A DNA stretch of 64,000 nucleotides, taken from NCBI GenBank assembly GCA_963710535.1, contig CAVQAW010000001.1, forward strand, positions 410 through 64,409, read 5' to 3'. This document shows positions 28,604 to 39,075 of this stretch, piece by piece (the stretch's first letter is position 1; each line of letters opens with the position of its first letter). The notes under the pieces are model-generated. The model saw only the letters and a program-made list of their open reading frames with translations. It did no database searches and was not told the origin of the DNA. The position numbers and the translations under genes were made by a program. Origin of the DNA: an uncultured Flavobacteriaceae bacterium. Its GTDB lineage: Bacteria > Bacteroidota > Bacteroidia > Flavobacteriales > Flavobacteriaceae.

Positions 28604-30235
28604 CTATTTCAAGATGCCGGTATACTTGGTTTTGTTCGCGAGCAGCTCAGTGGCCGCCAATATGGCCTCATCGTTCTTAAGGTTATATTCGTAAAGCCCT
28701 TCCCTGTAAAAATAGCGCTTTACGATTTCATCCTTCAATTTCGACTGAATTTCATTTTGATAGGTTTCCAGGGCCGTAATCTTACTTTTATCGAGATCGG
28801 ACAACAAGGTTTTGATATCATTTTTGATGGCTTCGTTAAAAGTCACCTCTTGCCGCCCGCCCAATGCTTCCTTCAAGATCTTTTCCGTTTGGGTTTCGAA
28901 CGTAAAGTTGCTTTGGGAAACAAAACTTTTGAACTGTTGGAAATCGCCGTCCGAAAATTGAAAGGCTTTGATATCTGGAAACTGGTGCTGGTAATAAAAT
29001 GAAGTGGCGTAATCAAATATTACATTGCCGTTGATCAAGGCATTGGTGAGCTCATTGGCCTGGGTCGCATCGATTTCAACATCGGGTAGCACCCCTCCGC
29101 CATCCTGGACTTTGCGGCCATTTCGGGTGGCAAAGTCCTTAAAACTGCTGGTTTTAATGGCATTGCCCTCTTCATCCCTGTTCCAATAATCCAGGGATTG
29201 TATACAGCGGCCGGAAGGCGTATAGTAGCGGCTGATCGTCACTTTTAACTGCGTGCCGTAGGTAAGCTTCAAAGGGCGCTGTACCAATCCCTTACCAAAA
29301 GTACGCGCCCCCATCACCACGGCGCGATCGAGGTCTTGGAGGCTTCCCGACACGATTTCACTGGCCGAGGCGCTGCCACCGTCGACCAGGACCACCAAGG
29401 GAATCTCCGCGTCTTCGGGGCTGTTCCGGGTCTTATATTCTTGGTTGAATTTCTTTACTTTGGATTTTGTGGTAACGATCAGTTCGCCCTTGGGAACGAA
29501 AAGATTGGTTACGTTGATCGCTTCTGTGAGCAACCCCCCAGGATTGCCGCGGAGGTCGAGGATGATGCTCTGGGCACCTTTGCCTTTCAAGTCGTTCAGC
29601 GCCTCCTTGGTCTGCTCCGATGCCTTGGCATTGAATTTGTTCAGAACGATATAACCGGTTTCGTCATCGACCATGTGATAATAGGGTACTGCATCGACTT
29701 CCACTGCAGACCTGGTGATGATCGTGGTTTTGATTTCCCCTTGTCGCTTATAGGATACGTTCACCGCAGTATTGTTGGCCCCCTTGAGCAGCTCACTGGC
29801 ATTGTCGTCGAAGGCGGACACCTCTATATCGCCAATTTTGATGATCTCGTCCCCCGCTTTTAGGCCTGCCTTGTCGGCCGGATAGTCTTTATAGGGCTCA
29901 ATGATCAACAGCTTGTCTTTGAAGGAACGCACCAAGGCCCCGATACCCGAGTATTCCCCGGCATTGTTGATTTTATATTCCTCCACGTCCTGCTCATTCA
30001 AGAACTTGGTGTAGGGGTCTAGATCGTCCAACATGTTCTTGATGGCGGTATCCATGAGTTCGGCAGGGTTGGTCTCGTCCACATAGTTCATGTTGAGTTC
30101 TTTGAACAAGGTGGTAAAGATTTCGATCTGCTTGGCGATTTCGAAGAAATCACTCTTAAAACTACTGCCTGCCACCAAAAGACCTATGGCGAGGATCGGA
30201 ACAATTATTTTTGCTTTAATCGATCTTTTCATCAT
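28604..30235 (-). CDS. S41 family C-terminal processing peptidase with PDZ
   Basis: 'LDPYT', 'ILDLRGNPGGLL', 'SASASEIVSGSLQD.DRAVVMG.RTFGKGLVQ'. Confidence 0.92.
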   Translation of the reverse strand: MMKRSIKAKIIVPILAIGLLVAGSSFKSDFFEIAKQIEIFTTLFKELNMNYVDETNPAELMDTAIKNMLDDLDPYTKFLNEQDVEEYKINNAGEYSGIGALVRSFKDKLLIIEPYKDYPADKAGLKAGDEIIKIGDIEVSAFDDNASELLKGANNTAVNVSYKRQGEIKTTIITRSAVEVDAVPYYHMVDDETGYIVLNKFNAKASEQTKEALNDLKGKGAQSIILDLRGNPGGLLTEAINVTNLFVPKGELIVTTKSKVKKFNQEYKTRNSPEDAEIPLVVLVDGGSASASEIVSGSLQDLDRAVVMGARTFGKGLVQRPLKLTYGTQLKVTISRYYTPSGRCIQSLDYWNRDEEGNAIKTSSFKDFATRNGRKVQDGGGVLPDVEIDATQANELTNALINGNVIFDYATSFYYQHQFPDIKAFQFSDGDFQQFKSFVSQSNFTFETQTEKILKEALGGRQEVTFNEAIKNDIKTLLSDLDKSKITALETYQNEIQSKLKDEIVKRYFYREGLYEYNLKNDEAILAATELLANKTKYTGILK

Positions 30236-30602
30236 CAACTTTGTTTATGAATTTCTCTAGAATTTTCTTAACATGCACCTCAATGGTCTGGTATTGGGGC
30301 ATATCTTTCCCAAGGTATAAAAATAGGAACGCAAAGTTTCCCACACTATTGTTAAAAAGAATCGGTTTGTTCAATCGATAGGCCTCGCGCAGCAACCTCT
30401 TGATCCGGTTGCGCTTCACGGCACTCTTAAAGTTCTTCTTGGGCACAGTGACCCCGGTTTTGAACTTCACCTTTTCTTCCGGCCCGGTTTGGAGATAGAT
30501 CAATTTTATGGGATAGGAGGTCACGGCCTTCCCTTCCACAAACAACCGATCGATCAGTTTTTTGCTTTTGAGTTTTTCTTTTTTGGGGAAAGTGAATGGC
30601 AT
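30216..30602 (-). CDS. rnpA: Ribonuclease P protein component
   Basis: 'FPKKEKLK', 'VPKKNFKSAVKRNRIKRLLREAYRL'; start 30602. Confidence 0.92.
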   Translation of the reverse strand: MPFTFPKKEKLKSKKLIDRLFVEGKAVTSYPIKLIYLQTGPEEKVKFKTGVTVPKKNFKSAVKRNRIKRLLREAYRLNKPILFNNSVGNFAFLFLYLGKDMPQYQTIEVHVKKILEKFINKVDDEKID

Positions 30603-30609
30603 AATGGCG

Positions 30610-30617
30610 CAAAAGTA
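30610..30617 (-). promoter_or_regulatory. -7 promoter element (TACTTTTG) for rnpA
   Basis: CAAAAGTA on the + strand, 7 nt from the ATG. Confidence 0.55.
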
Positions 30618-30719
30618 AACATAATACGCTTCTTCCGGATTATGATAATTGTCATAGTTGTCTTTATGCACGCTTGTTAAATTAGCCCGAAGTACCCATC
30701 ATCCTCTAAAAACATATTC

Positions 30720-32570
30720 ATGGGCGAATTAAAAGTTGAAAAGTTGGCGGGAAGCGCCGCAAAAACAAAATACATCAATCACCTACTGCGCGATATCGCG
30801 GCCTTGGAACTGATGTTGGAACGGGACATGATCGAAAAATCGCCGACAAGGATAGGGGCAGAACAGGAATTTTGTTTGGTCGATGATTCCTGGGAACCGG
30901 CCAACACGGCCATGGAAATCCTGAAAAAACTCGATGACCCCAAATTCACTACCGAAGTGGCCCTTTATAATTTGGAAGTGAACCTAGACCCGCTGACGTT
31001 GACCGGGGATTGTTTTTCGAAAATGCACGGCGAATTGAACGGCTTATTGGAAAAGGCGAGAAAAATTGCCGAAAAACACGGATCGAAAGTACTGCTGACG
31101 GGAATACTTCCCACCATCGACCAGCGGCATTTGACGGAGGCGTCGATGACCCCGCTAAAAAGATATCAGGTACTCGATAAAACCATAAGGGATTTGAGGG
31201 GGGATCAAATTGAACTTCATATCAAGGGGGTCGATGAAATCAACCTGCATCACGATTCCATTCTTTTTGAAGGGTGCAATACCAGTTTCCAGGCACACTT
31301 GCAGATCGATGCTGACGATTTCGAAGATACCTACAATTGGGCGCAGACCATTGCCGGCCCGGTGCTTTCTATTTGTGCCAATTCCCCAATGCTTATGGGC
31401 CGTGAATTATGGCAGGAAACCAGGATCGCCCTCTTTACCCAGAGCGTGGATTCAAGGGCGAGCACCAATTTGCTCAATGAAAGGGAGGCCCGTGTCGGTT
31501 TTGGCAGGGATTGGGCCAAAGGCTCGGTGGCCGATTTTTATAAGGAAAGCGTGGTTCGTTTCAAGAGCTTGCTGAACGCCGATTTCGGCACTGATAGCCT
31601 TACCGAGATGGAAAATGGCAAAGTGCCCAAACTAAAGGCGCTCCACCTGCACAACGGCACGGTTTACAAATGGAATCGGGTGTGTTATGGCGTCACGGCC
31701 GGGAAGCCCCATATCCGCATCGAAAATCGTTACATGCCTTCCGGACCGACCACCATGGACGAAATTGCCAACATGATGTTCTGGGTGGGATTGATGCGGG
31801 CAAGACCCAAACAATACAACGATATCCGAAACAAGATCGACTTCAAGGATGTAAAAAGCAATTTTTACAATGCGGCACGCTATGGGACCGCCGCCCAGTT
31901 CTATTGGGAGGGCCGCCTCGTGCCCTGTAAGGAACTCTTGCTAGACGAACTGTTGCCGATGGCCTATCGCGGTCTGTACACGATGAACGTGTTGCCGGAA
32001 GATGCGGAAAAATATCTCTCGGTCATAGAAAACAGGATCAAGACCAGAAATGGTGCGCGCTGGATCGTGGAGAGCTATCGCAAACTGAAAAAGGAACACA
32101 AGACCCACGACGTACTTCACCTGCTCACCGCGGCCATGTACCAGCATGAGCGTAAGGGCTACGCGATCGATGCATGGGAATTGGCCCGCGGCAACGAATT
32201 TAGCTGGGATGCCAACAAGCGGAAAGTGAGGCAATTGATGAATACCGACATCATTTCTGCCCAAGAAGACGACAGTGCCGAACTGGTGCTCAAAATCATG
32301 TATTGGAAGAACATCCACCACCTTCCCATTATGGACGCCAAAATGGAGCTGGTAGGGTTACTCACCTGGACGGATGTCAAACATTTTATGGAGCAACCAA
32401 AAAGTGCTGAAAGAAGCATCCAAAAGATCATGAGAACAAAACTGGTCACAATCGATGCGGATGCCACGGTGAAGGAGGCCAAAGCATTGATGGCGGCAAA
32501 CCAGATCAATTGTTTGCCCGTTATGGGGAACCATAAGCTTGTGGGAATCCTGACCACAAAGGATGTATAG
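30720..32570 (+). CDS. Glutamate-cysteine ligase-like (GCS2 family) carboxylate-amine ligase with a C-terminal CBS pair
   Basis: 'IGAEQEFCLVD', 'TEVALYNLEVN', 'SFQAHLQI', 'NGTVYKWNR', 'HIRIENRYMPSGP'; C-terminal CBS repeats ('IHHLPIMD...LVGLLT', 'INCLPV...LVGILT..D'). Confidence 0.75.
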   Translation: MGELKVEKLAGSAAKTKYINHLLRDIAALELMLERDMIEKSPTRIGAEQEFCLVDDSWEPANTAMEILKKLDDPKFTTEVALYNLEVNLDPLTLTGDCFSKMHGELNGLLEKARKIAEKHGSKVLLTGILPTIDQRHLTEASMTPLKRYQVLDKTIRDLRGDQIELHIKGVDEINLHHDSILFEGCNTSFQAHLQIDADDFEDTYNWAQTIAGPVLSICANSPMLMGRELWQETRIALFTQSVDSRASTNLLNEREARVGFGRDWAKGSVADFYKESVVRFKSLLNADFGTDSLTEMENGKVPKLKALHLHNGTVYKWNRVCYGVTAGKPHIRIENRYMPSGPTTMDEIANMMFWVGLMRARPKQYNDIRNKIDFKDVKSNFYNAARYGTAAQFYWEGRLVPCKELLLDELLPMAYRGLYTMNVLPEDAEKYLSVIENRIKTRNGARWIVESYRKLKKEHKTHDVLHLLTAAMYQHERKGYAIDAWELARGNEFSWDANKRKVRQLMNTDIISAQEDDSAELVLKIMYWKNIHHLPIMDAKMELVGLLTWTDVKHFMEQPKSAERSIQKIMRTKLVTIDADATVKEAKALMAANQINCLPVMGNHKLVGILTTKDV

Positions 32571-32585
32571 CCGCACCTTCCATCC

Positions 32586-33803
32586 ATGACCGAAATAGCG
32601 AAGCATAAAGCGAAGGACATACGGCCGGCCCGGTTCATCGGACAGCTGCAAGGGAAGGCCAAAGGCCCTACCTTGTTGTTCTTCGGGGGCATACACGGCA
32701 ATGAAATGGCCGGGGTCAGGGCAATTGAAAAGGTTTTTAAGGTTCTGGGCCCACATGCCGATCAGGTCAAGGGATCGATTTACGGAATTCGGGGCAACAT
32801 CCCCGCACAACTCAGCCAAAAACGTTTTTTGGACGATGACCTGAATCGCCTTTGGACCACGGAAGGGGTTGCGGCCATTTTGGGCAAGCCGGCCACGGAA
32901 CGCAATGTGGAGGAATCCGAACTTTTTGAAATCAACGCCCTTCTTACCGAAGTGATCCGCAGCGAATCGCCCCCTTTCTATTTTATCGATTTCCATACCA
33001 CTTCGGGCAAGAGCAGACCCTTCATCACCATTAACGATGCGCTGATCAACCGAAGGTTTTCCCTCCTTTTTCCGGTGCCCATCGTTTTGGGAATCGAAGA
33101 ATACCTGGAAGGGCCACTGCTCAGCCTCATGAACGAGCAGGGCTATGTCTCGCTGGGATTTGAATCGGGCCAACATAGCGAATTGAACGCCGTAAGCAAC
33201 GCTTATGCGTTCATGTGGTTGGGCCTGGTCTATGCAGAATGTATCCCAAAAACCCTGGTGCCCGATTTCGAAACTTTATATGGCCGGCTCCAAAAAGATG
33301 CCAGGGGCGATTCGGGTTTTTACGAGGTGACCTACCGACACCTATTGGCCGAAGGCACCGATTTTAAAATGCTGCCAGGCTTCACGAACTTTCAAAACGT
33401 GGAGAAGGGCACCGTGCTGGCCTTGCAGGACGGGAAGGAAATCAAGACCAAAAAAAGCAGCACCCTTTTTATGCCGCTCTATCAAAAACAGGGCAAGGAA
33501 GGATATTTTTTAATACGGCGCATTCCCAAATGGGCCTTGCGGGCTTCCACTATAGCAAGAAATCTCAAGATCGATGGGTGGCTCACCGTTTTGCCGGGAA
33601 TCTCATGGAGCGATGAAAGGAAGGAACAACTGCTGGTGAACACCAGTATTGCCCGTTTCTTTACGAAGTCGTTTTTCCATGTGCTGGGTTATCGAAGCAT
33701 GACCCTGGGCAAGTCGAAAATGCTGATGCAGAACCGCGAGCGTACCGCCAAAAATGCGGATTATAAAAACGAGTGGTGGTTCAAAAACGGCAAAAAAGCC
33801 TAG
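32586..33803 (+). CDS. Succinylglutamate desuccinylase/aspartoacylase (M14-like) family protein
   Basis: Zn motifs 'GGIHGNE', 'DLNR', 'IDFHTT', 'FESGQH'. Confidence 0.85.
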   Translation: MTEIAKHKAKDIRPARFIGQLQGKAKGPTLLFFGGIHGNEMAGVRAIEKVFKVLGPHADQVKGSIYGIRGNIPAQLSQKRFLDDDLNRLWTTEGVAAILGKPATERNVEESELFEINALLTEVIRSESPPFYFIDFHTTSGKSRPFITINDALINRRFSLLFPVPIVLGIEEYLEGPLLSLMNEQGYVSLGFESGQHSELNAVSNAYAFMWLGLVYAECIPKTLVPDFETLYGRLQKDARGDSGFYEVTYRHLLAEGTDFKMLPGFTNFQNVEKGTVLALQDGKEIKTKKSSTLFMPLYQKQGKEGYFLIRRIPKWALRASTIARNLKIDGWLTVLPGISWSDERKEQLLVNTSIARFFTKSFFHVLGYRSMTLGKSKMLMQNRERTAKNADYKNEWWFKNGKKA

Positions 33804-35671
33804 GGATTCGGTTGCCACACATTGTTTTCGGGATTGATGTCGGCCATCAACTGCGACGGGTCGATCAGCACGGCCTTGATCTGCTGCAAAGGCTTATCGA
33901 TCACAAAACCATACGATTTGGAGGCCCATGCCCAATCTTCCAAAACGGTACGCTTCAGTTGGGGATATGGATTTTCCTTTTCGCCCCGCATCATGCTCAA
34001 GGGCGCATAAAACGTTTCCTGGCTTCCGTCTTGGTAGACCACCAATAGATCGACGGGCATCGGCATCAATCCGAGACGCACCAGATCTACCTTGGTACGG
34101 TTTCCATCCGAAGCAACGGCCTCAATACCATAATCGATGGTGTTCGTGGTCTGTGTCCAGTCGGTGAGGTACCAATCGAGTTCCATATGGGATACTTTTT
34201 CTGCCGTTCGCTTGATGTCGTTGGGCACCGGATGTTTGAATTTGAAGTCGCTATAGTATTTTCTAAGGGTTTCCATGAGTTTGTCCTGCCCGATCACATA
34301 CCCCAGTTGGGCCAAAAAAACCGCCCCTTTGTTATAGGCAGATTGCCCATACGCAAAATTGAGTTCGTATCGGTCGGCATGGGTGGTCTGCGGCTGTTCT
34401 TTCCCGGAAAGCGCCAGGTTGTAATACCCCGAATAGATGTCCTCAAATGGAAAGGCCTTGTTTTCCTCCATAATTTCGTTCTTGCACAGGGTAGACACAA
34501 AAGAGGTAAAGCCCTCGTCCATCCATTCGTGCTTCGACTCATTGGTGGCCAGTACATGCTGAAACCAGGAATGCGCCATTTCATGTACCGTTACACTTAC
34601 CAGGCTCCCATAGTTTCGACCTCCCGTAATCAAGGTGGCCATGGCATATTCCATGCCACCATCCCCCCCATGGATCACCGAATATTGCTCGTAAGGGTAA
34701 GGGCCTATATTTTGGTTGAAAAACTGCATAGCCGCTGCGGTCTTGGGCTGCAATTTTTTCCAATTCTCTATAATTTCAGGGTCGTTCTTGTATAAAAAAT
34801 GGAGCATGGGCCCATTTTCCACTTTTAGGGTATCGTGCAGGTAGTCGGGGTCGGCCGCCCACATAAAATCATGTACCATGGGGGCCTTGAAATGCCAGGT
34901 AAGCGTTTTCCCTTTGATCTTGGCGACCTTGGTTCCGGGCGCCTCGTAGCCGTGACCTATTTCCTGTGGGTTCTGTAAATAACCACTACCACCTACCACG
35001 TAGTTTTTGTCAAGGGTCAACTTCACGTCGAAATCGCCCCAAACCCCGTGAAACTCACGGGCGATATAAGGATCGGCATGCCATCCTTCAAAATCGTATT
35101 CCGCCAATTTGGGATACCATTGGCTCATTGAAAGGGCAACCCCTTCGGCATTGTCTCTTCCAGATCGCCTGATCTGTACCGGCACCTGCCCGTTGAAGTC
35201 CATATCAAAGGTGGTCTTACCGCCAGGCGGAATGGGCTGGGCCAGGTCTACCACCAAAACGGTGCCTTCCTCAACAGCGGAAACGGGCGCGCCATCCTGC
35301 TTCAGGGAAGTGGCGTGCAGATATCCGATCTCTGTCTCGGTAAGACCGGCGATACGGCTCTTTTTGTCTTTGGTGGTCATGCGGCTGTCGGGATCGGCAA
35401 TGGATTGTAGGCGCATATCCATCTCACTTCCCGGCTGAAAAGCATTGAAGTAAAGATGGTAATAAACCCGCTCCAAGGTATCCGGGGAGTTGTTGGTATA
35501 TACCAGCTTTTGGGTACCGTTGTACCGGAAACTTTCAACGTCTATGGCGACCTCCATGGTATAGTCGACATGTTGCTGCCAATAACAGGCATTGTTCTGG
35601 GCATGTCCCCAATTCGATAGGGCCAAAAGCACGATCATGGCGCCGAGACCTTTCAAAATCCGATGTTTCAT
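33800..35671 (-). CDS. M1 family metallopeptidase
   Basis: 'GGMEY' exopeptidase motif and 'HEMAHSWF...WMDEG', with a signal peptide. Confidence 0.9.
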   Translation of the reverse strand: MKHRILKGLGAMIVLLALSNWGHAQNNACYWQQHVDYTMEVAIDVESFRYNGTQKLVYTNNSPDTLERVYYHLYFNAFQPGSEMDMRLQSIADPDSRMTTKDKKSRIAGLTETEIGYLHATSLKQDGAPVSAVEEGTVLVVDLAQPIPPGGKTTFDMDFNGQVPVQIRRSGRDNAEGVALSMSQWYPKLAEYDFEGWHADPYIAREFHGVWGDFDVKLTLDKNYVVGGSGYLQNPQEIGHGYEAPGTKVAKIKGKTLTWHFKAPMVHDFMWAADPDYLHDTLKVENGPMLHFLYKNDPEIIENWKKLQPKTAAAMQFFNQNIGPYPYEQYSVIHGGDGGMEYAMATLITGGRNYGSLVSVTVHEMAHSWFQHVLATNESKHEWMDEGFTSFVSTLCKNEIMEENKAFPFEDIYSGYYNLALSGKEQPQTTHADRYELNFAYGQSAYNKGAVFLAQLGYVIGQDKLMETLRKYYSDFKFKHPVPNDIKRTAEKVSHMELDWYLTDWTQTTNTIDYGIEAVASDGNRTKVDLVRLGLMPMPVDLLVVYQDGSQETFYAPLSMMRGEKENPYPQLKRTVLEDWAWASKSYGFVIDKPLQQIKAVLIDPSQLMADINPENNVWQPNP

Positions 35672-35679
35672 ATCTTCAA

Positions 35680-37311
35680 TTATACTTTGATTTTTCCACT
35701 GTTCACCTGATCGGCCAAGATCAGGGCATTATAGGCGTTGACCATACTTCCCGAGGCCGAAATCTCATCCAGGGTGCCCGTTTTGGATGTGTCACCTCCC
35801 AAGATGACCTCTGTCCTCGGCGCCAAACCCGATTGCATTAAAATATGCTTCACTTGTGACGCACTCAATTTAGGGTACTGCGACCGGATCAATGCAGCCA
35901 CACCGGCCACGGCAGGGGCCGCCATAGAAGTGCCCGGCGAAAACTCATATGTATTGTCGGGATAGGTGGAGTAAATATCGGTACCCGGCGCAAAAATATC
36001 GACATTGGTTTTGCCATAATTCGAATAGGATGCTACCAAATCGGAACCGTAGTCGGGGTTCAGGGCACCTACCGTTATCACATTGTCGGAAAATTCAGGC
36101 CCGTTGTTCACTTGATCGTTCGGATAATTGGCATTTTTTGGGTCGTCGAGGTCATGACCATCGTTACCGGCGGCATGTACGAAAAGCACATCGTTGTCGG
36201 CGGCATATTTTAGGGCATCATAAACCCATGTTGCGTTGGGGGAGTACGACTTCCCAAAGCTGCCGTTGATGATCTTTGCCCCGTTATCCACGGCATAGCG
36301 GATGCCAAGGGCGATATCCTTGTCATATTCGTCCCCATTGGGCACGGCGCGAACACTCATGATCTCCACATTATTGGCCACTCCATTGGCCCCTTTGCCA
36401 TTGTTGCGCTCGGCGGCGATGATGCCCGCTACATGGGTACCGTGGCTTTCATCTTCCGATCTGCTCTGTGGATTCCCATTGCCGTAGTTGGTGTCCAAAA
36501 TGTCGTAGGCATTGTCCCCTACCACCGTTCGGCCGTCAAAATTCACATTATAATTGTAGTTTACTTGGTCGGAGAAGTGCTTGATGCCATCGCCAAGCTC
36601 TTCGATCACCTCGGCAATCGTATCTTTGATGCTGAACATCTGCATCAAAATACTGATGTTTCGCTGCATGGCTTCGTCCTTCGGGGCAATGCCCAAAAGG
36701 TCTTCTTTGGTATAGGTTTCCTTTCCGAGCGCTTTCTTTACCTCGGCGTCAGAAGTTTTGACCGCCTGGAGGATCTGCTCGTACTGTTGCTTGTTCTGTA
36801 GGGCTTCCGCATATCCCTTATCGACATCTGCCTTTGCCTTGGCCTGCATCGCGGCATCGCCCAGTTTTAACCTCAAGATGCGGGCGCTCTCCAATTGTTC
36901 ATTGTAGGCCTCTCCCAAAAAATTATAGCCGTGGACATCATCGATAAAGCCATTTTTGTCGTCGTCCTTGCCATTGTTCGGGATTTCCCCTTTGTTGGTC
37001 CAAAGCACATCGTCCAGGTCTTCGTGCTTCAGATCGATGCCCGAGTCCAGTACCGCGACGATTACTTTTTGGCCTTTTTTGTTTCCGATGATTTCGGAAT
37101 AGGCCTTGTCGACGCTCATCCCCGGGATGGTATCGGCGACAAGATCTAGGTGTCCCCAATTTTTTTTCTCCGCCTCGGAAAGATCGGAAATCTTGAGCGG
37201 GGTGGTATCGATATTCGCAATGGGCGTCAATACCAGGGTGGTTGCCCCACATCCGACAAAGAGTGCCGTTGCGAAAAAGGCGAATATAATTTTTGATAAG
37301 ATGCGTGTCAT
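35680..37311 (-). CDS. S8 subtilisin-like serine peptidase (lipoprotein)
   Basis: Catalytic triad 'VLDSG', 'HGTHVAG', 'GTSMAAP'; lipobox FVGC. Confidence 0.92.
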   Translation of the reverse strand: MTRILSKIIFAFFATALFVGCGATTLVLTPIANIDTTPLKISDLSEAEKKNWGHLDLVADTIPGMSVDKAYSEIIGNKKGQKVIVAVLDSGIDLKHEDLDDVLWTNKGEIPNNGKDDDKNGFIDDVHGYNFLGEAYNEQLESARILRLKLGDAAMQAKAKADVDKGYAEALQNKQQYEQILQAVKTSDAEVKKALGKETYTKEDLLGIAPKDEAMQRNISILMQMFSIKDTIAEVIEELGDGIKHFSDQVNYNYNVNFDGRTVVGDNAYDILDTNYGNGNPQSRSEDESHGTHVAGIIAAERNNGKGANGVANNVEIMSVRAVPNGDEYDKDIALGIRYAVDNGAKIINGSFGKSYSPNATWVYDALKYAADNDVLFVHAAGNDGHDLDDPKNANYPNDQVNNGPEFSDNVITVGALNPDYGSDLVASYSNYGKTNVDIFAPGTDIYSTYPDNTYEFSPGTSMAAPAVAGVAALIRSQYPKLSASQVKHILMQSGLAPRTEVILGGDTSKTGTLDEISASGSMVNAYNALILADQVNSGKIKV

Positions 37312-37337
37312 TTTATTTTTTGTTTTTAGAATACGTT

Positions 37338-38231
37338 TTAAAAATGGGCTCCCGGGAATAGGGCCGGAAAGCTTTCGAGACAGCCCCTATCGGCCATGGT
37401 CACAAAACAGGTTTTGCCATTTTTGCCCCCAAATGTAATGTTTGACGGCTTTTTTCCCTTAAGAAGTATCTCTTTTATGATTTTTTTATCAGGGGAGACC
37501 ACCACTACCGTACCCTTATCGTAGCGCGTGATGTACAGGTTTCCCTTGCGATCGCAACGCATGCCGTCCATCCCGAAATCTTCGAAGGTGATGAAGTTGC
37601 TTTTGTTCGACAGGCTTCCATCGGGCTTGATATCGTATCGCCAAACCTGGCGCTGCACCGATTCGTTCACATAAAGATGTTCGCCGTCCGGGCTCACTTC
37701 TATGCCGTTGGTGGTGCCCATATGTTCTTCCAAGAGCAGGATTTTCCTATCGGCATTGACCAACCAGAGCCTGCCGGTTCCGTCCTTCCAGTTGGGATCG
37801 CTCAGGTATATGAGCCCATTGGGGGCCATGGCGAGGTCGTTGGGCTGGCTCATGTTAGGGTCGTGGGCATATACTTCAGGAATTTTAGAGCCTTTCTTGA
37901 CCCGAAAAACGTTGTGGCCGACATAGTCGGCGATATACATGTTCCCTTCCCTGTCGAACCGAATGCCGTTCCCCACACTCGTGCCCGGAAGTTTTAGGAA
38001 TACTTCCCCATCCCCTTTGTCGTTTACGATGCCTATGGTCCCCTCTTCCATGAAGTTGACCGCATACAGATTTCCTTCCTTGTCGACCGCGGGCCCCTCA
38101 ATGCCTTTTGTGAAAGCGAACTCCGACGTAAAATCCTTGCTGTCAATTTGTTGGGCTTTACAGGAAGTTAAAAGGAGCAGTGAGGAAAGGACAAAAAACG
38201 GGCTAAATACAAAATTATTCAAATACTTCAT
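37338..38231 (-). CDS. SMP-30/gluconolactonase family lipoprotein
   Basis: 'EGPAVD', 'PNDL', 'TNGIEVSPD', 'MDGMRCD', 'NITFGG'; start MKYLNN at 38231 with lipobox LTSC. Confidence 0.85.
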   Translation of the reverse strand: MKYLNNFVFSPFFVLSSLLLLTSCKAQQIDSKDFTSEFAFTKGIEGPAVDKEGNLYAVNFMEEGTIGIVNDKGDGEVFLKLPGTSVGNGIRFDREGNMYIADYVGHNVFRVKKGSKIPEVYAHDPNMSQPNDLAMAPNGLIYLSDPNWKDGTGRLWLVNADRKILLLEEHMGTTNGIEVSPDGEHLYVNESVQRQVWRYDIKPDGSLSNKSNFITFEDFGMDGMRCDRKGNLYITRYDKGTVVVVSPDKKIIKEILLKGKKPSNITFGGKNGKTCFVTMADRGCLESFPALFPGAHF

Positions 38232-39075
38232 CGAAGGTATACAATTGGTTAAGACGGACCCCTCTTTCGGTCTGTTGCAAGGTACAAATTTCATGGTGTG
38301 CATCGTGTTCGAAAAACAGATGGTAATCGTTGGCAACCGCCTCGTCCAAAAAAACCTCCTTTTCCGTCAAGGTCAATAAAGGCCGTGTATCATAGCCCAT
38401 GACATAGGGCAATGGGATATGGCCCACCGTAGGGATGAGGTCGGCGACAAAAACCAACTTCTTCCCTTTGTATTGGATATGGGGCAGCATCTGCTTTTCG
38501 GTATGCCCATCCACAAAAAGGATGCCGAAACCCAATTCCGATCGTTGAAGGAAAGGGTTGCCACTGTGGTTCACGAAACGCAATTGACCGCTTTCCTGCA
38601 TGGGCATCAGGTTTTCTTTTAAAAAAGAGGCTTTTTCGCGTACATTGGGCTGTGTTGCCCAGTGCCAATGGGCTTCATTCGACCAGAAAATCGCATTTTT
38701 GAAGGCGGGTTCGTAGGCGGTTCGATCCCGGTTCCATTGGATACTGCCCCCACAATGATCAAAATGCAGGTGGGTCATGAACACATCGGTAACGTCATCG
38801 CGATGGAAACCCAATTTATGCAATGATTTATCGAGGGTGTGGTCGCCCCAGCGATAATAGTAGCCGAAAAACTTATCCGATTGTTTATTGCCCATGCCCG
38901 AATCGATCAGGATCAAGCGGTTCCCATCTTCGATCAACAGGCAGCGTGCGGCAATATCGATCATATTGTTGTTGTCTGCGGGATTGGTTTTGTGCCAAAT
39001 AGATTTGGGCACCACCCCGAACATGGCGCCGCCATCCAACTTAAAATTTCCGGTTTCCAAAGGGTGTAATGTCAT
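38215..39075 (-). CDS. MBL-fold metallo-hydrolase
   Basis: 'FKLDGGAMFGVVPK', 'THLHFDHCGG', 'GHTE', 'FEHD'. Confidence 0.9.
   Translation of the reverse strand: MTLHPLETGNFKLDGGAMFGVVPKSIWHKTNPADNNNMIDIAARCLLIEDGNRLILIDSGMGNKQSDKFFGYYYRWGDHTLDKSLHKLGFHRDDVTDVFMTHLHFDHCGGSIQWNRDRTAYEPAFKNAIFWSNEAHWHWATQPNVREKASFLKENLMPMQESGQLRFVNHSGNPFLQRSELGFGILFVDGHTEKQMLPHIQYKGKKLVFVADLIPTVGHIPLPYVMGYDTRPLLTLTEKEVFLDEAVANDYHLFFEHDAHHEICTLQQTERGVRLNQLYTFDEVFE

Follow-up and report, generated by a model that had tools for sequence, protein, structure and literature searches.

An adjacent ligase gene and hydrolase gene from an uncultured Flavobacteriaceae bacterium are presented here as one functional unit that recurs across the Bacteroidota and Chlorobi. 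We propose that the pair works as a self-contained module that makes and breaks a small amide of the γ-glutamyl-amino-acid type, a proposal that in our judgement is about as apt to prove right as wrong. The genes lie in a 64,000-nucleotide stretch of DNA (GCA_963710535.1, contig CAVQAW010000001.1, positions 410 to 64,409 of the forward strand), which is called the window below and within which all positions are counted. The first encodes P0001, a ligase with the fold of glutamate-cysteine ligases (GCLs) and YbdK followed by a pair of CBS domains, and the second encodes P0002, a zinc amidohydrolase of the AstE/AspA family.

Conserved linkage of ligase and hydrolase

P0001 is the product of a 616-amino-acid open reading frame (ORF) at 30720-32570 and P0002 that of a 405-amino-acid ORF at 32586-33803, both on the plus strand, and the 15 bp that the original prediction, made from the letters of this DNA alone, had placed between them is exact. 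Each gene is present once in the source genome, whose relatives include Maribacter and Aggregatimonas. When 80 Flavobacteriaceae loci were fetched with the ligase protein as query, the hydrolase lay directly downstream on the same strand in 79, the sole exception running off its contig, and the gap between the genes was -15 to +25 nt in 78 of these 79 (the other value, -652, is an alignment-derived outlier). Among 301 genomes drawn evenly from the Bacteroidota and Chlorobi, with adjacency taken from gene coordinates, a third (100) contain the ligase domain, and 79 of those 100 have an adjacent co-directional hydrolase: five of five in family f1, three of four in f11, 46 of 47 in f28 (a clade with Balneolaceae and Rhodohalobacter as named relatives) and 25 of 26 in the Chlorobiaceae. 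The remaining f28 genome has both genes at contig ends, and one of the Chlorobiaceae cases is a mere remnant. Gene order is invariably ligase then hydrolase. A deacylase unlinked in most genomes, which the original prediction had named as counting against it, is not what was found: in both sets adjacency is the rule.

The Chlorobiaceae ligase is shorter (~480-540 amino acids) and lacks the CBS pair, and its partner is a divergent AstE/AspA protein that was missed with P0002 as query, found via neighbourhood clustering and confirmed with Pfam. This division between a Chlorobi type and a Bacteroidota type is the deepest split in both the ligase and the hydrolase tree, and adjacency is kept in at least four families and at least two classes. 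Chance adjacency of two unrelated genes has nothing in its favour but the absence of a known shared pathway; linkage of such breadth, co-divergence at the deepest split and the stable fusions described below have already refuted it, and its probability is practically nil. All-against-all clustering of the neighbours at 43 loci found no conserved third gene, only lineage-specific housekeeping synteny and ubiquitous SusC-type receptors.

Two loci of genus g117 in f28 (L043:6042-11056 and L046:5969-10983) have a tandem of ligase-CBS paralogues, two genes in all, ahead of a single hydrolase gene. In the ligase tree the proximal copy falls in the clade of Flavobacteriaceae type and the distal copy in the clade usual for f28. 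In other f28 genomes a ligase of f28 type is combined with a hydrolase of the 'long' subtype, a mixture suggestive of exchanged partners.

Fusion of the two enzymes

A survey of the best 150 representatives of the ligase domain at 50% identity found ligase and hydrolase together in six clusters, two with the arrangement ligase-CBS-hydrolase (P0162 and P0163) and four without CBS domains (P0231, P0242, P0248 and P0256). The hydrolase subtype in each fusion is the one that matches its ligase clade, indicating at least two independent fusion events. Since a gene gap of a few nucleotides would allow a sequencing error to mimic a fusion, a follow-up search was made with P0162; it returned at least 43 clusters at 90% identity, all full-length fusions of 828-954 amino acids with 58-100% identity. 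Hundreds of sequences in NCBI, Tara, JGI and ENA belong to these CBS-bearing fusions, which come from marine Flavobacteriales. All 45 fused proteins examined keep 15 of the 16 key ligase residues (S189 is glycine in 43), and the 10 key hydrolase residues are likewise kept, bar one alignment gap at Y299. These results indicate that the fusion is genuine, of long standing and maintained by selection, with an intact active site in each half as judged from sequence.

At the usual position of the hydrolase, one 800-amino-acid metagenomic protein (P0168, from a cluster of three members) instead has a HIT (nucleotide hydrolase/transferase) domain after the ligase-CBS region.

The ligase and its CBS pair

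The first gene had been predicted to combine an amide-forming fold with CBS domains, and both parts of that assignment were upheld. The Pfam CBS family (PF00571) matches two stretches within residues ~499-616 of P0001 (E 5.9e-24, 84.6 bits). The match to GCS2 (PF04107) is marginal, at 22.4 bits against a cut-off of 21, and covers residues 46-150 alone; a six-frame search of the genome with this family at E<=0.01 reported the canonical YbdK gene only and not the P0001 gene. An AlphaFold2 (AF2) model built from an 82-sequence alignment has a predicted local distance difference test (pLDDT) score of 95.6, and its ligase domain matches YbdK of Salmonella (1tt4; VIA Z 35.9, root-mean-square deviation (rmsd) 2.3, 341 residues) and of E. 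coli (1r8g; Z 35.4), followed by plant GCL (2gwc; Z 31.2) and yeast GCL (3ig5; Z 28.6), the last over 466 aligned residues reaching residue 486, near the end of the domain. E. coli-type GshA (Z ~20) and Dop and PafA (Z 18-19) are more distant. Because identity to the solved structures of this fold is 12-18%, and because a ligase-domain profile found no solved GCL among PDB sequences, the ligase is a distinct, divergent family inside the GCL/YbdK superfamily. It comprises 655 clusters at 50% identity with E<1e-30.

Sixteen residues are invariant in the 82 members: G46, E48, E50, E79, E86, R148, S189, Q191, H193, E233, R235, R258, R320, R333, E335 and R337. At the level of motifs, the set E48, E50, E86, Q191, H193, R235, E335 and R337 is reminiscent of the metal, ATP and acyl-phosphate site known from GCLs. 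The CBS pair is ~30% identical to the nucleotide-bound CBS pairs of MJ0922, MJ0100 and AcuB (Z 17-19, rmsd 1.4-1.6). In the second CBS domain of the 65 CBS-bearing members G609 is 98%, T612 72% and D615 86% conserved, and the G-h-h-T-x-x-D signature of this domain is all that is conserved with regard to binding of an adenosine-type ligand.

P0001 could be a plain γ-glutamylcysteine synthetase (the gshA product) serving glutathione or γ-Glu-Cys, with the hydrolase unrelated or accessory. A GCL fold with a weak GCS2 match would suit such an enzyme, some relatives are labelled 'gamma-glutamylcysteine synthetase' in some sources, and halophilic archaea possess a GshA of GCS2 type. We nevertheless consider this highly improbable. 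Every NCBIfam equivalog for gshA and YbdK fails widely on P0001 (the best, NF010043, at 24.3 bits against a cut-off of 409), and PF04262 (gshA) was not found in the genome, which is 99.2% complete. The original prediction had remarked that no gshB is adjacent, and there is none in the whole genome either, both PF02955 matches being RimK equivalogs (371 and 378 bits). The genome does encode BshC, which points to bacillithiol as its thiol, and has a separate, canonical YbdK-type ligase elsewhere, beside a GATase-like gene. Furthermore, a GshB-like gene occurs in ~16 of the 301 genomes as against 100 for the ligase, and ligase and hydrolase are closely coupled, in some lineages to the point of fusion. 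With gshA and gshB missing, BshC present, a YbdK of its own in the genome and GshB-like genes rare, an ordinary glutathione role is very unlikely; γ-Glu-Cys as one product of the ligase is possible.

The hydrolase

The second gene had been taken for an amide-hydrolysing zinc enzyme, and its family match, fold and aligned zinc triad agree. P0002 scores 49.5 bits against AstE_AspA_cat (PF24827; cut-off 25), and its model (pLDDT 90.3) is about equally similar to AstE, DoeB/EutE, ASPA, aminoacylase-3 and CphZ (Z 20-24, CphZ at Z 20). Profile alignment with human ASPA places H37, E40 and H137 on the zinc ligands H21, E24 and H116, R80 on R63, and N87/R88 on N70/R71. These residues, E193 and an MPLYQ motif at 296-300 are invariant in 25 homologues; by its motif position E193 would correspond to the general base of ASPA, E178. 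Meanwhile all equivalog models failed (PRK05324, 41 bits against a cut-off of 170; PRK02259, 36 against 180; TIGR03242, 33 against 306), and P0002 is a separate subfamily of AstE/AspA enzymes.

No Pfam family matches the C-terminal extension of P0002, and the structural matches scarcely reach into it. Within the extension the motifs LPG..W, FHLLGYR and NRER are conserved in the Flavobacteriaceae, in two of the three f11 hydrolases aligned and in part of f28, and the extension is absent from hydrolases of ~300-320 amino acids.

Other ligase partners of AstE-type hydrolases

Three Flavobacteriaceae genomes without a GCS2-CBS ligase contain a ~300-amino-acid hydrolase, 36% identical to P0002, in a conserved triad with a QEGLA/MATCAP-like (DUF1704) peptidase and a GshB-like ATP-grasp ligase (PRK12458, 421 bits against a cut-off of 408). 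The triad hydrolases fall inside the Bacteroidota-type clade of the hydrolase tree, with P0002, and this clade is therefore repeatedly partnered with ligases of glutathione-pathway type. The idea that the GCS2-CBS pair and the GshB-like triad are mutually exclusive was rejected, as two genomes (G219 and G279) have both, unlinked. In Photobacterium the QEGLA and 'GshB' genes of a related module, and RimK, are reported to respond to a drop in salinity with some of the strongest induction of any genes (PMC10308900).

A third kind of partner is found in the source genome itself, where on contig C10 (L154:3173-5141) the genes of a RimK-family glutamate ligase (371 bits against the S6-glutamate ligase model) and of a weakly DoeB-like, 335-amino-acid AstE_AspA_cat protein (E 3e-30) share 23 bp. 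AstE-type hydrolases thus recur beside three kinds of amide ligase: GCS2-type, GshB-like and RimK.

Two further loci of the source genome involve related ligases. On contig C4 a 460-amino-acid protein has an N-terminal RimB-like retropepsin domain fused to a RimK ligase (L155:3455-4837). On contig C10 the canonical YbdK-type ligase (545 bits; L156:1088-6370) is co-directional with genes for a class-I GATase-like, an esterase-like and two Pfam-less proteins; this cluster is a different amidoligase system, likewise uncharacterised.

Gene layout

The features of the locus are given in Table 1. The flanking genes are rnpA and that of an S41 Ctp protease, both divergent, on one side, and those of an M1 peptidase and an S8 subtilase, both convergent, on the other. 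An Rfam scan of 30000-34200 returned nothing real; the 48-bp spacer upstream of the ligase has neither an Rfam element nor a promoter-like match. Promoter and terminator scans performed no better than shuffles, with promoter matches in 30100-34200 at chance level.

At 33800-33803 the hydrolase gene overlaps its convergent neighbour, an M1-family peptidase gene (33800-35671, minus strand), by the 4 bp of their stop-codon ends, leaving no space for a terminator in between. Across 28604-39075 the order ctp-rnpA / ligase-hydrolase / M1 peptidase-S8 subtilase-MBL hydrolase is kept in four other Flavobacteriaceae genera (L034-L037) and not beyond the family, and this is probably plain vertical synteny.

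Table 1. Features of the ligase-hydrolase locus (positions within the window) and loci of the related triad
Feature	Position	Strand	Assignment and basis
48-bp spacer, divergent rnpA to ligase start	30672..30719	+	Presumed promoter and 5' untranslated region of the two-gene operon; promoter role from geometry alone
P0001 ligase domain, residues 1-~490	30720..32189	+	Divergent glutamate-cysteine-ligase/YbdK-fold carboxylate-amine ligase; Pfam GCS2 and AF2 fold
P0001 C-terminal CBS pair (Bateman module), residues ~497-616, and stop codon	32208..32570	+	Pfam CBS
P0002 zinc amidohydrolase core, residues 1-314	32586..33527	+	AstE/AspA family; PF24827
P0002 C-terminal extension, residues 315-405 (~90 amino acids), and stop codon	33528..33803	+	Conserved in the 'long' subtype
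QEGLA/MATCAP-like - GshB-like - hydrolase triad	L157:3079-6986; L153:6017-10175; L158:6029-9935		

Discussion

The original prediction had described an energy-gated synthesis/breakdown pair. That the two genes form one functional unit is strongly supported by their adjacency, their co-diverging subfamilies and the stable fusions, but 'energy-gated' is overstated as a defining trait, since the Chlorobiaceae and several fused forms have no CBS pair. In the module that we propose, P0001 would be an active ATP-dependent ligase that most likely phosphorylates the γ-carboxylate of glutamate and joins the activated glutamate to an amine, probably the α-amino group of an amino acid. P0002, also predicted to be active, would most likely cleave the very bond that P0001 makes. 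The enzymes, encoded 15 bp apart, are presumably co-translated and, because other lineages fuse the two, probably form a complex. Between them they would determine how much product is present, with the CBS pair adjusting the ligase in response to an adenosine-type ligand or to the ionic environment. To our knowledge, all characterised enzymes of the GS/GCL superfamily activate the glutamate γ-carboxylate as an acyl phosphate. Characterised AstE/AspA enzymes all cleave N-α-acyl amino acids, holding the α-carboxylate in an Asn/Arg clamp, and the make-and-break proposal is favoured because a γ-glutamyl amino acid would satisfy the chemistry of both families. The γ-glutamyl or acyl-amino-acid metabolite of the original prediction fits on the same grounds, the identity of the product being something that we infer. 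One AstE-family enzyme, CphZ, hydrolyses the isopeptide β-Asp-Arg (PMC9974463).

Several findings weigh against this proposal. A ligase and a hydrolase acting on one bond would be an ATP-wasting cycle unless regulated; the CBS pair, which could provide such regulation, is absent from the Chlorobiaceae and from several fusions and would be an optional regulatory add-on to the ligase. Of the 100 ligase-bearing genomes, 21 lack an adjacent hydrolase: in f6 both genes are present on different contigs, a P0002-like gene was not found in f14, f18, f23, f27, f30, f39 or f47, and two complete genomes (G167 and G013) have the ligase and no AstE/AspA-family gene whatever. These cases occupy at least four places on the ligase tree, so the hydrolase has been lost or unlinked repeatedly and is dispensable. 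No conserved transporter, modifying enzyme or target gene was seen nearby; the neighbours are housekeeping genes that differ by lineage, with rnpA and ctp at this locus and priA, scpB and rluB in f28. Finally, the catalytic roles suggested for the ligase residues follow from motif resemblance, the profile having found no solved GCL. The complete genomes with a ligase and no AstE-family gene also argue that the ligase can work alone, on substrates that are common metabolites and not products of the hydrolase.

That last point bears on a sequential pathway, in which the hydrolase would deacylate a precursor that supplies the amine or carboxylate used by the ligase, or in which the ligase would protect an amine with a γ-glutamyl group, an enzyme encoded elsewhere would modify it and the hydrolase would then remove the group, as in the Puu putrescine pathway. 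Such protect-modify-deprotect routes exist (PuuA/PuuD and Ipu), and fusion and operon coupling are equally typical of consecutive steps. However, a third enzyme is conserved beside the pair in no lineage examined, the ligase persists in some complete genomes that have no AstE-family protein, and related hydrolases always accompany some ligase, be it GCS2-type, GshB-like or RimK, which is the pattern of making and breaking. A sequential pathway is therefore considered unlikely.

Quite unlikely, too, is a protein or peptide write-erase system, in which the ligase would add an amino acid to a protein carboxylate, or join a protein C-terminal glutamate to an amine in the manner of PafA, and the M14-like hydrolase would remove it in the way of deglutamylases. 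PafA and Dop do share the ligase fold, the M14 carboxypeptidases CCP5 and Csd4 are among the structural matches of the hydrolase, RimK, which glutamylates proteins, has a further AstE-like gene as its neighbour in this genome, and the related triad contains a MATCAP-like carboxypeptidase. Against this, the P0001 fold is far nearer the small-molecule YbdK and GCL enzymes (Z 29-36, with most of the domain aligning to yeast GCL), P0002 is nearest the small-molecule enzymes AstE, DoeB and ASPA, and there is no conserved candidate substrate gene or small ORF beside the pair. Among the readings as osmolyte, storage compound or protein tag, the last has the least in its favour, since the ligase fold lies much nearer the small-molecule GCL/YbdK enzymes (Z 36) than PafA/Dop (Z 18-19).

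The make-and-break proposal can be carried further, to a version that is speculative and in our view rather unlikely. The module would make and break a widespread, hitherto undescribed low-molecular-weight γ-glutamyl dipeptide with glutamate or another abundant amino acid as acceptor, and so serve as a rapidly reversible osmotic or nitrogen 'capacitor' that buffers the pool of glutamate or of amino acids in marine Bacteroidota and green sulfur bacteria, the CBS pair reading ionic strength or adenylate/cyclic di-AMP (c-di-AMP) to decide between condensation and release. CBS modules are known to gate osmolyte transporters, and those carriers of the pair that have names belong overwhelmingly to marine or halophilic genera. 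This habitat, taken with the response of related modules to salinity, is only a lead towards an osmotic role.

P0001 resembles YbdK/GCS2 ligases and the plant and yeast GCLs in its fold, its marginal PF04107 match and, at the level of motifs, its conserved acidic, His and Arg residues. It differs from YbdK in the length of the ligase domain (~490 against ~370 amino acids), and from YbdK and the GCLs alike in its C-terminal CBS pair, in an obligate-looking hydrolase partner and in belonging to a genome that lacks gshB and has a true YbdK elsewhere. P0002 shares the fold, zinc triad, oxyanion Arg and N/R α-carboxylate clamp of AstE, ASPA, DoeB, aminoacylase-3 and CphZ, with an invariant Glu at the motif position of the general base, but is about equally distant from all of them (16-19% identity) and has its own MPLYQ motif and its extension. 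The segment at the position of Y164/R168 in ASPA, which bind the side-chain carboxylate, also differs.

The E. coli glutathionylspermidine synthetase/amidase (Gss) is a fusion of an opposing ligase and amidase acting on one amide bond. Its logic is that of the pair, in that a ligase and an amidase for the same bond are kept together or fused and regulation sets the net direction; this is an analogy and not a relationship, Gss combining ATP-grasp and CHAP folds in contrast to the GCL fold and M14-like zinc hydrolase found here. PafA and Dop, of the same superfamily fold as P0001, are also a ligase/de-ligase pair for a γ-glutamyl amide, but are structurally much more distant from P0001 than YbdK and GCL are, and the eraser Dop has a ligase fold and not an M14-like one. 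No Pup-like gene was seen in the pair neighbourhoods inspected, and no genome-wide search for pup was made. The QEGLA-GshB-like triad and the RimK-AstE pairs also place an AstE-family hydrolase beside an ATP-dependent amide ligase and are uncharacterised too; their ligase is of the ATP-grasp and not the GCL fold, a CBS pair is lacking, and a MATCAP-like peptidase is an additional member of the triad.

Literature searches on GCL, CBS and Bacteroidetes and on combinations of ligase and desuccinylase returned nothing on the pair, the sole co-mention being in an unrelated list of horizontal gene transfers. New in the present work are the CBS-less Chlorobiaceae variant with its own hydrolase subtype, the size of the fused lineage and the count of its intact residues, the recurrent loss of the hydrolase, the pairing of related hydrolases with GshB-like and RimK ligases, and the thiol-pathway context of the source genome.

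Both superfamilies are well known, yet this subfamily pair is large, conserved and without a characterised member. If the product were plain γ-Glu-Cys the interest would be modest. In planktonic marine Flavobacteriales the pair is kept as a single fused gene, and this form offers a ready single-polypeptide target for biochemistry. Once the product is identified, thousands of genes whose only present labels are 'CBS domain-containing protein' and 'succinylglutamate desuccinylase/aspartoacylase family protein' would gain a function, and either a new small metabolite or a new cycle of regulation would probably come to light in bacteria that are abundant in the sea.

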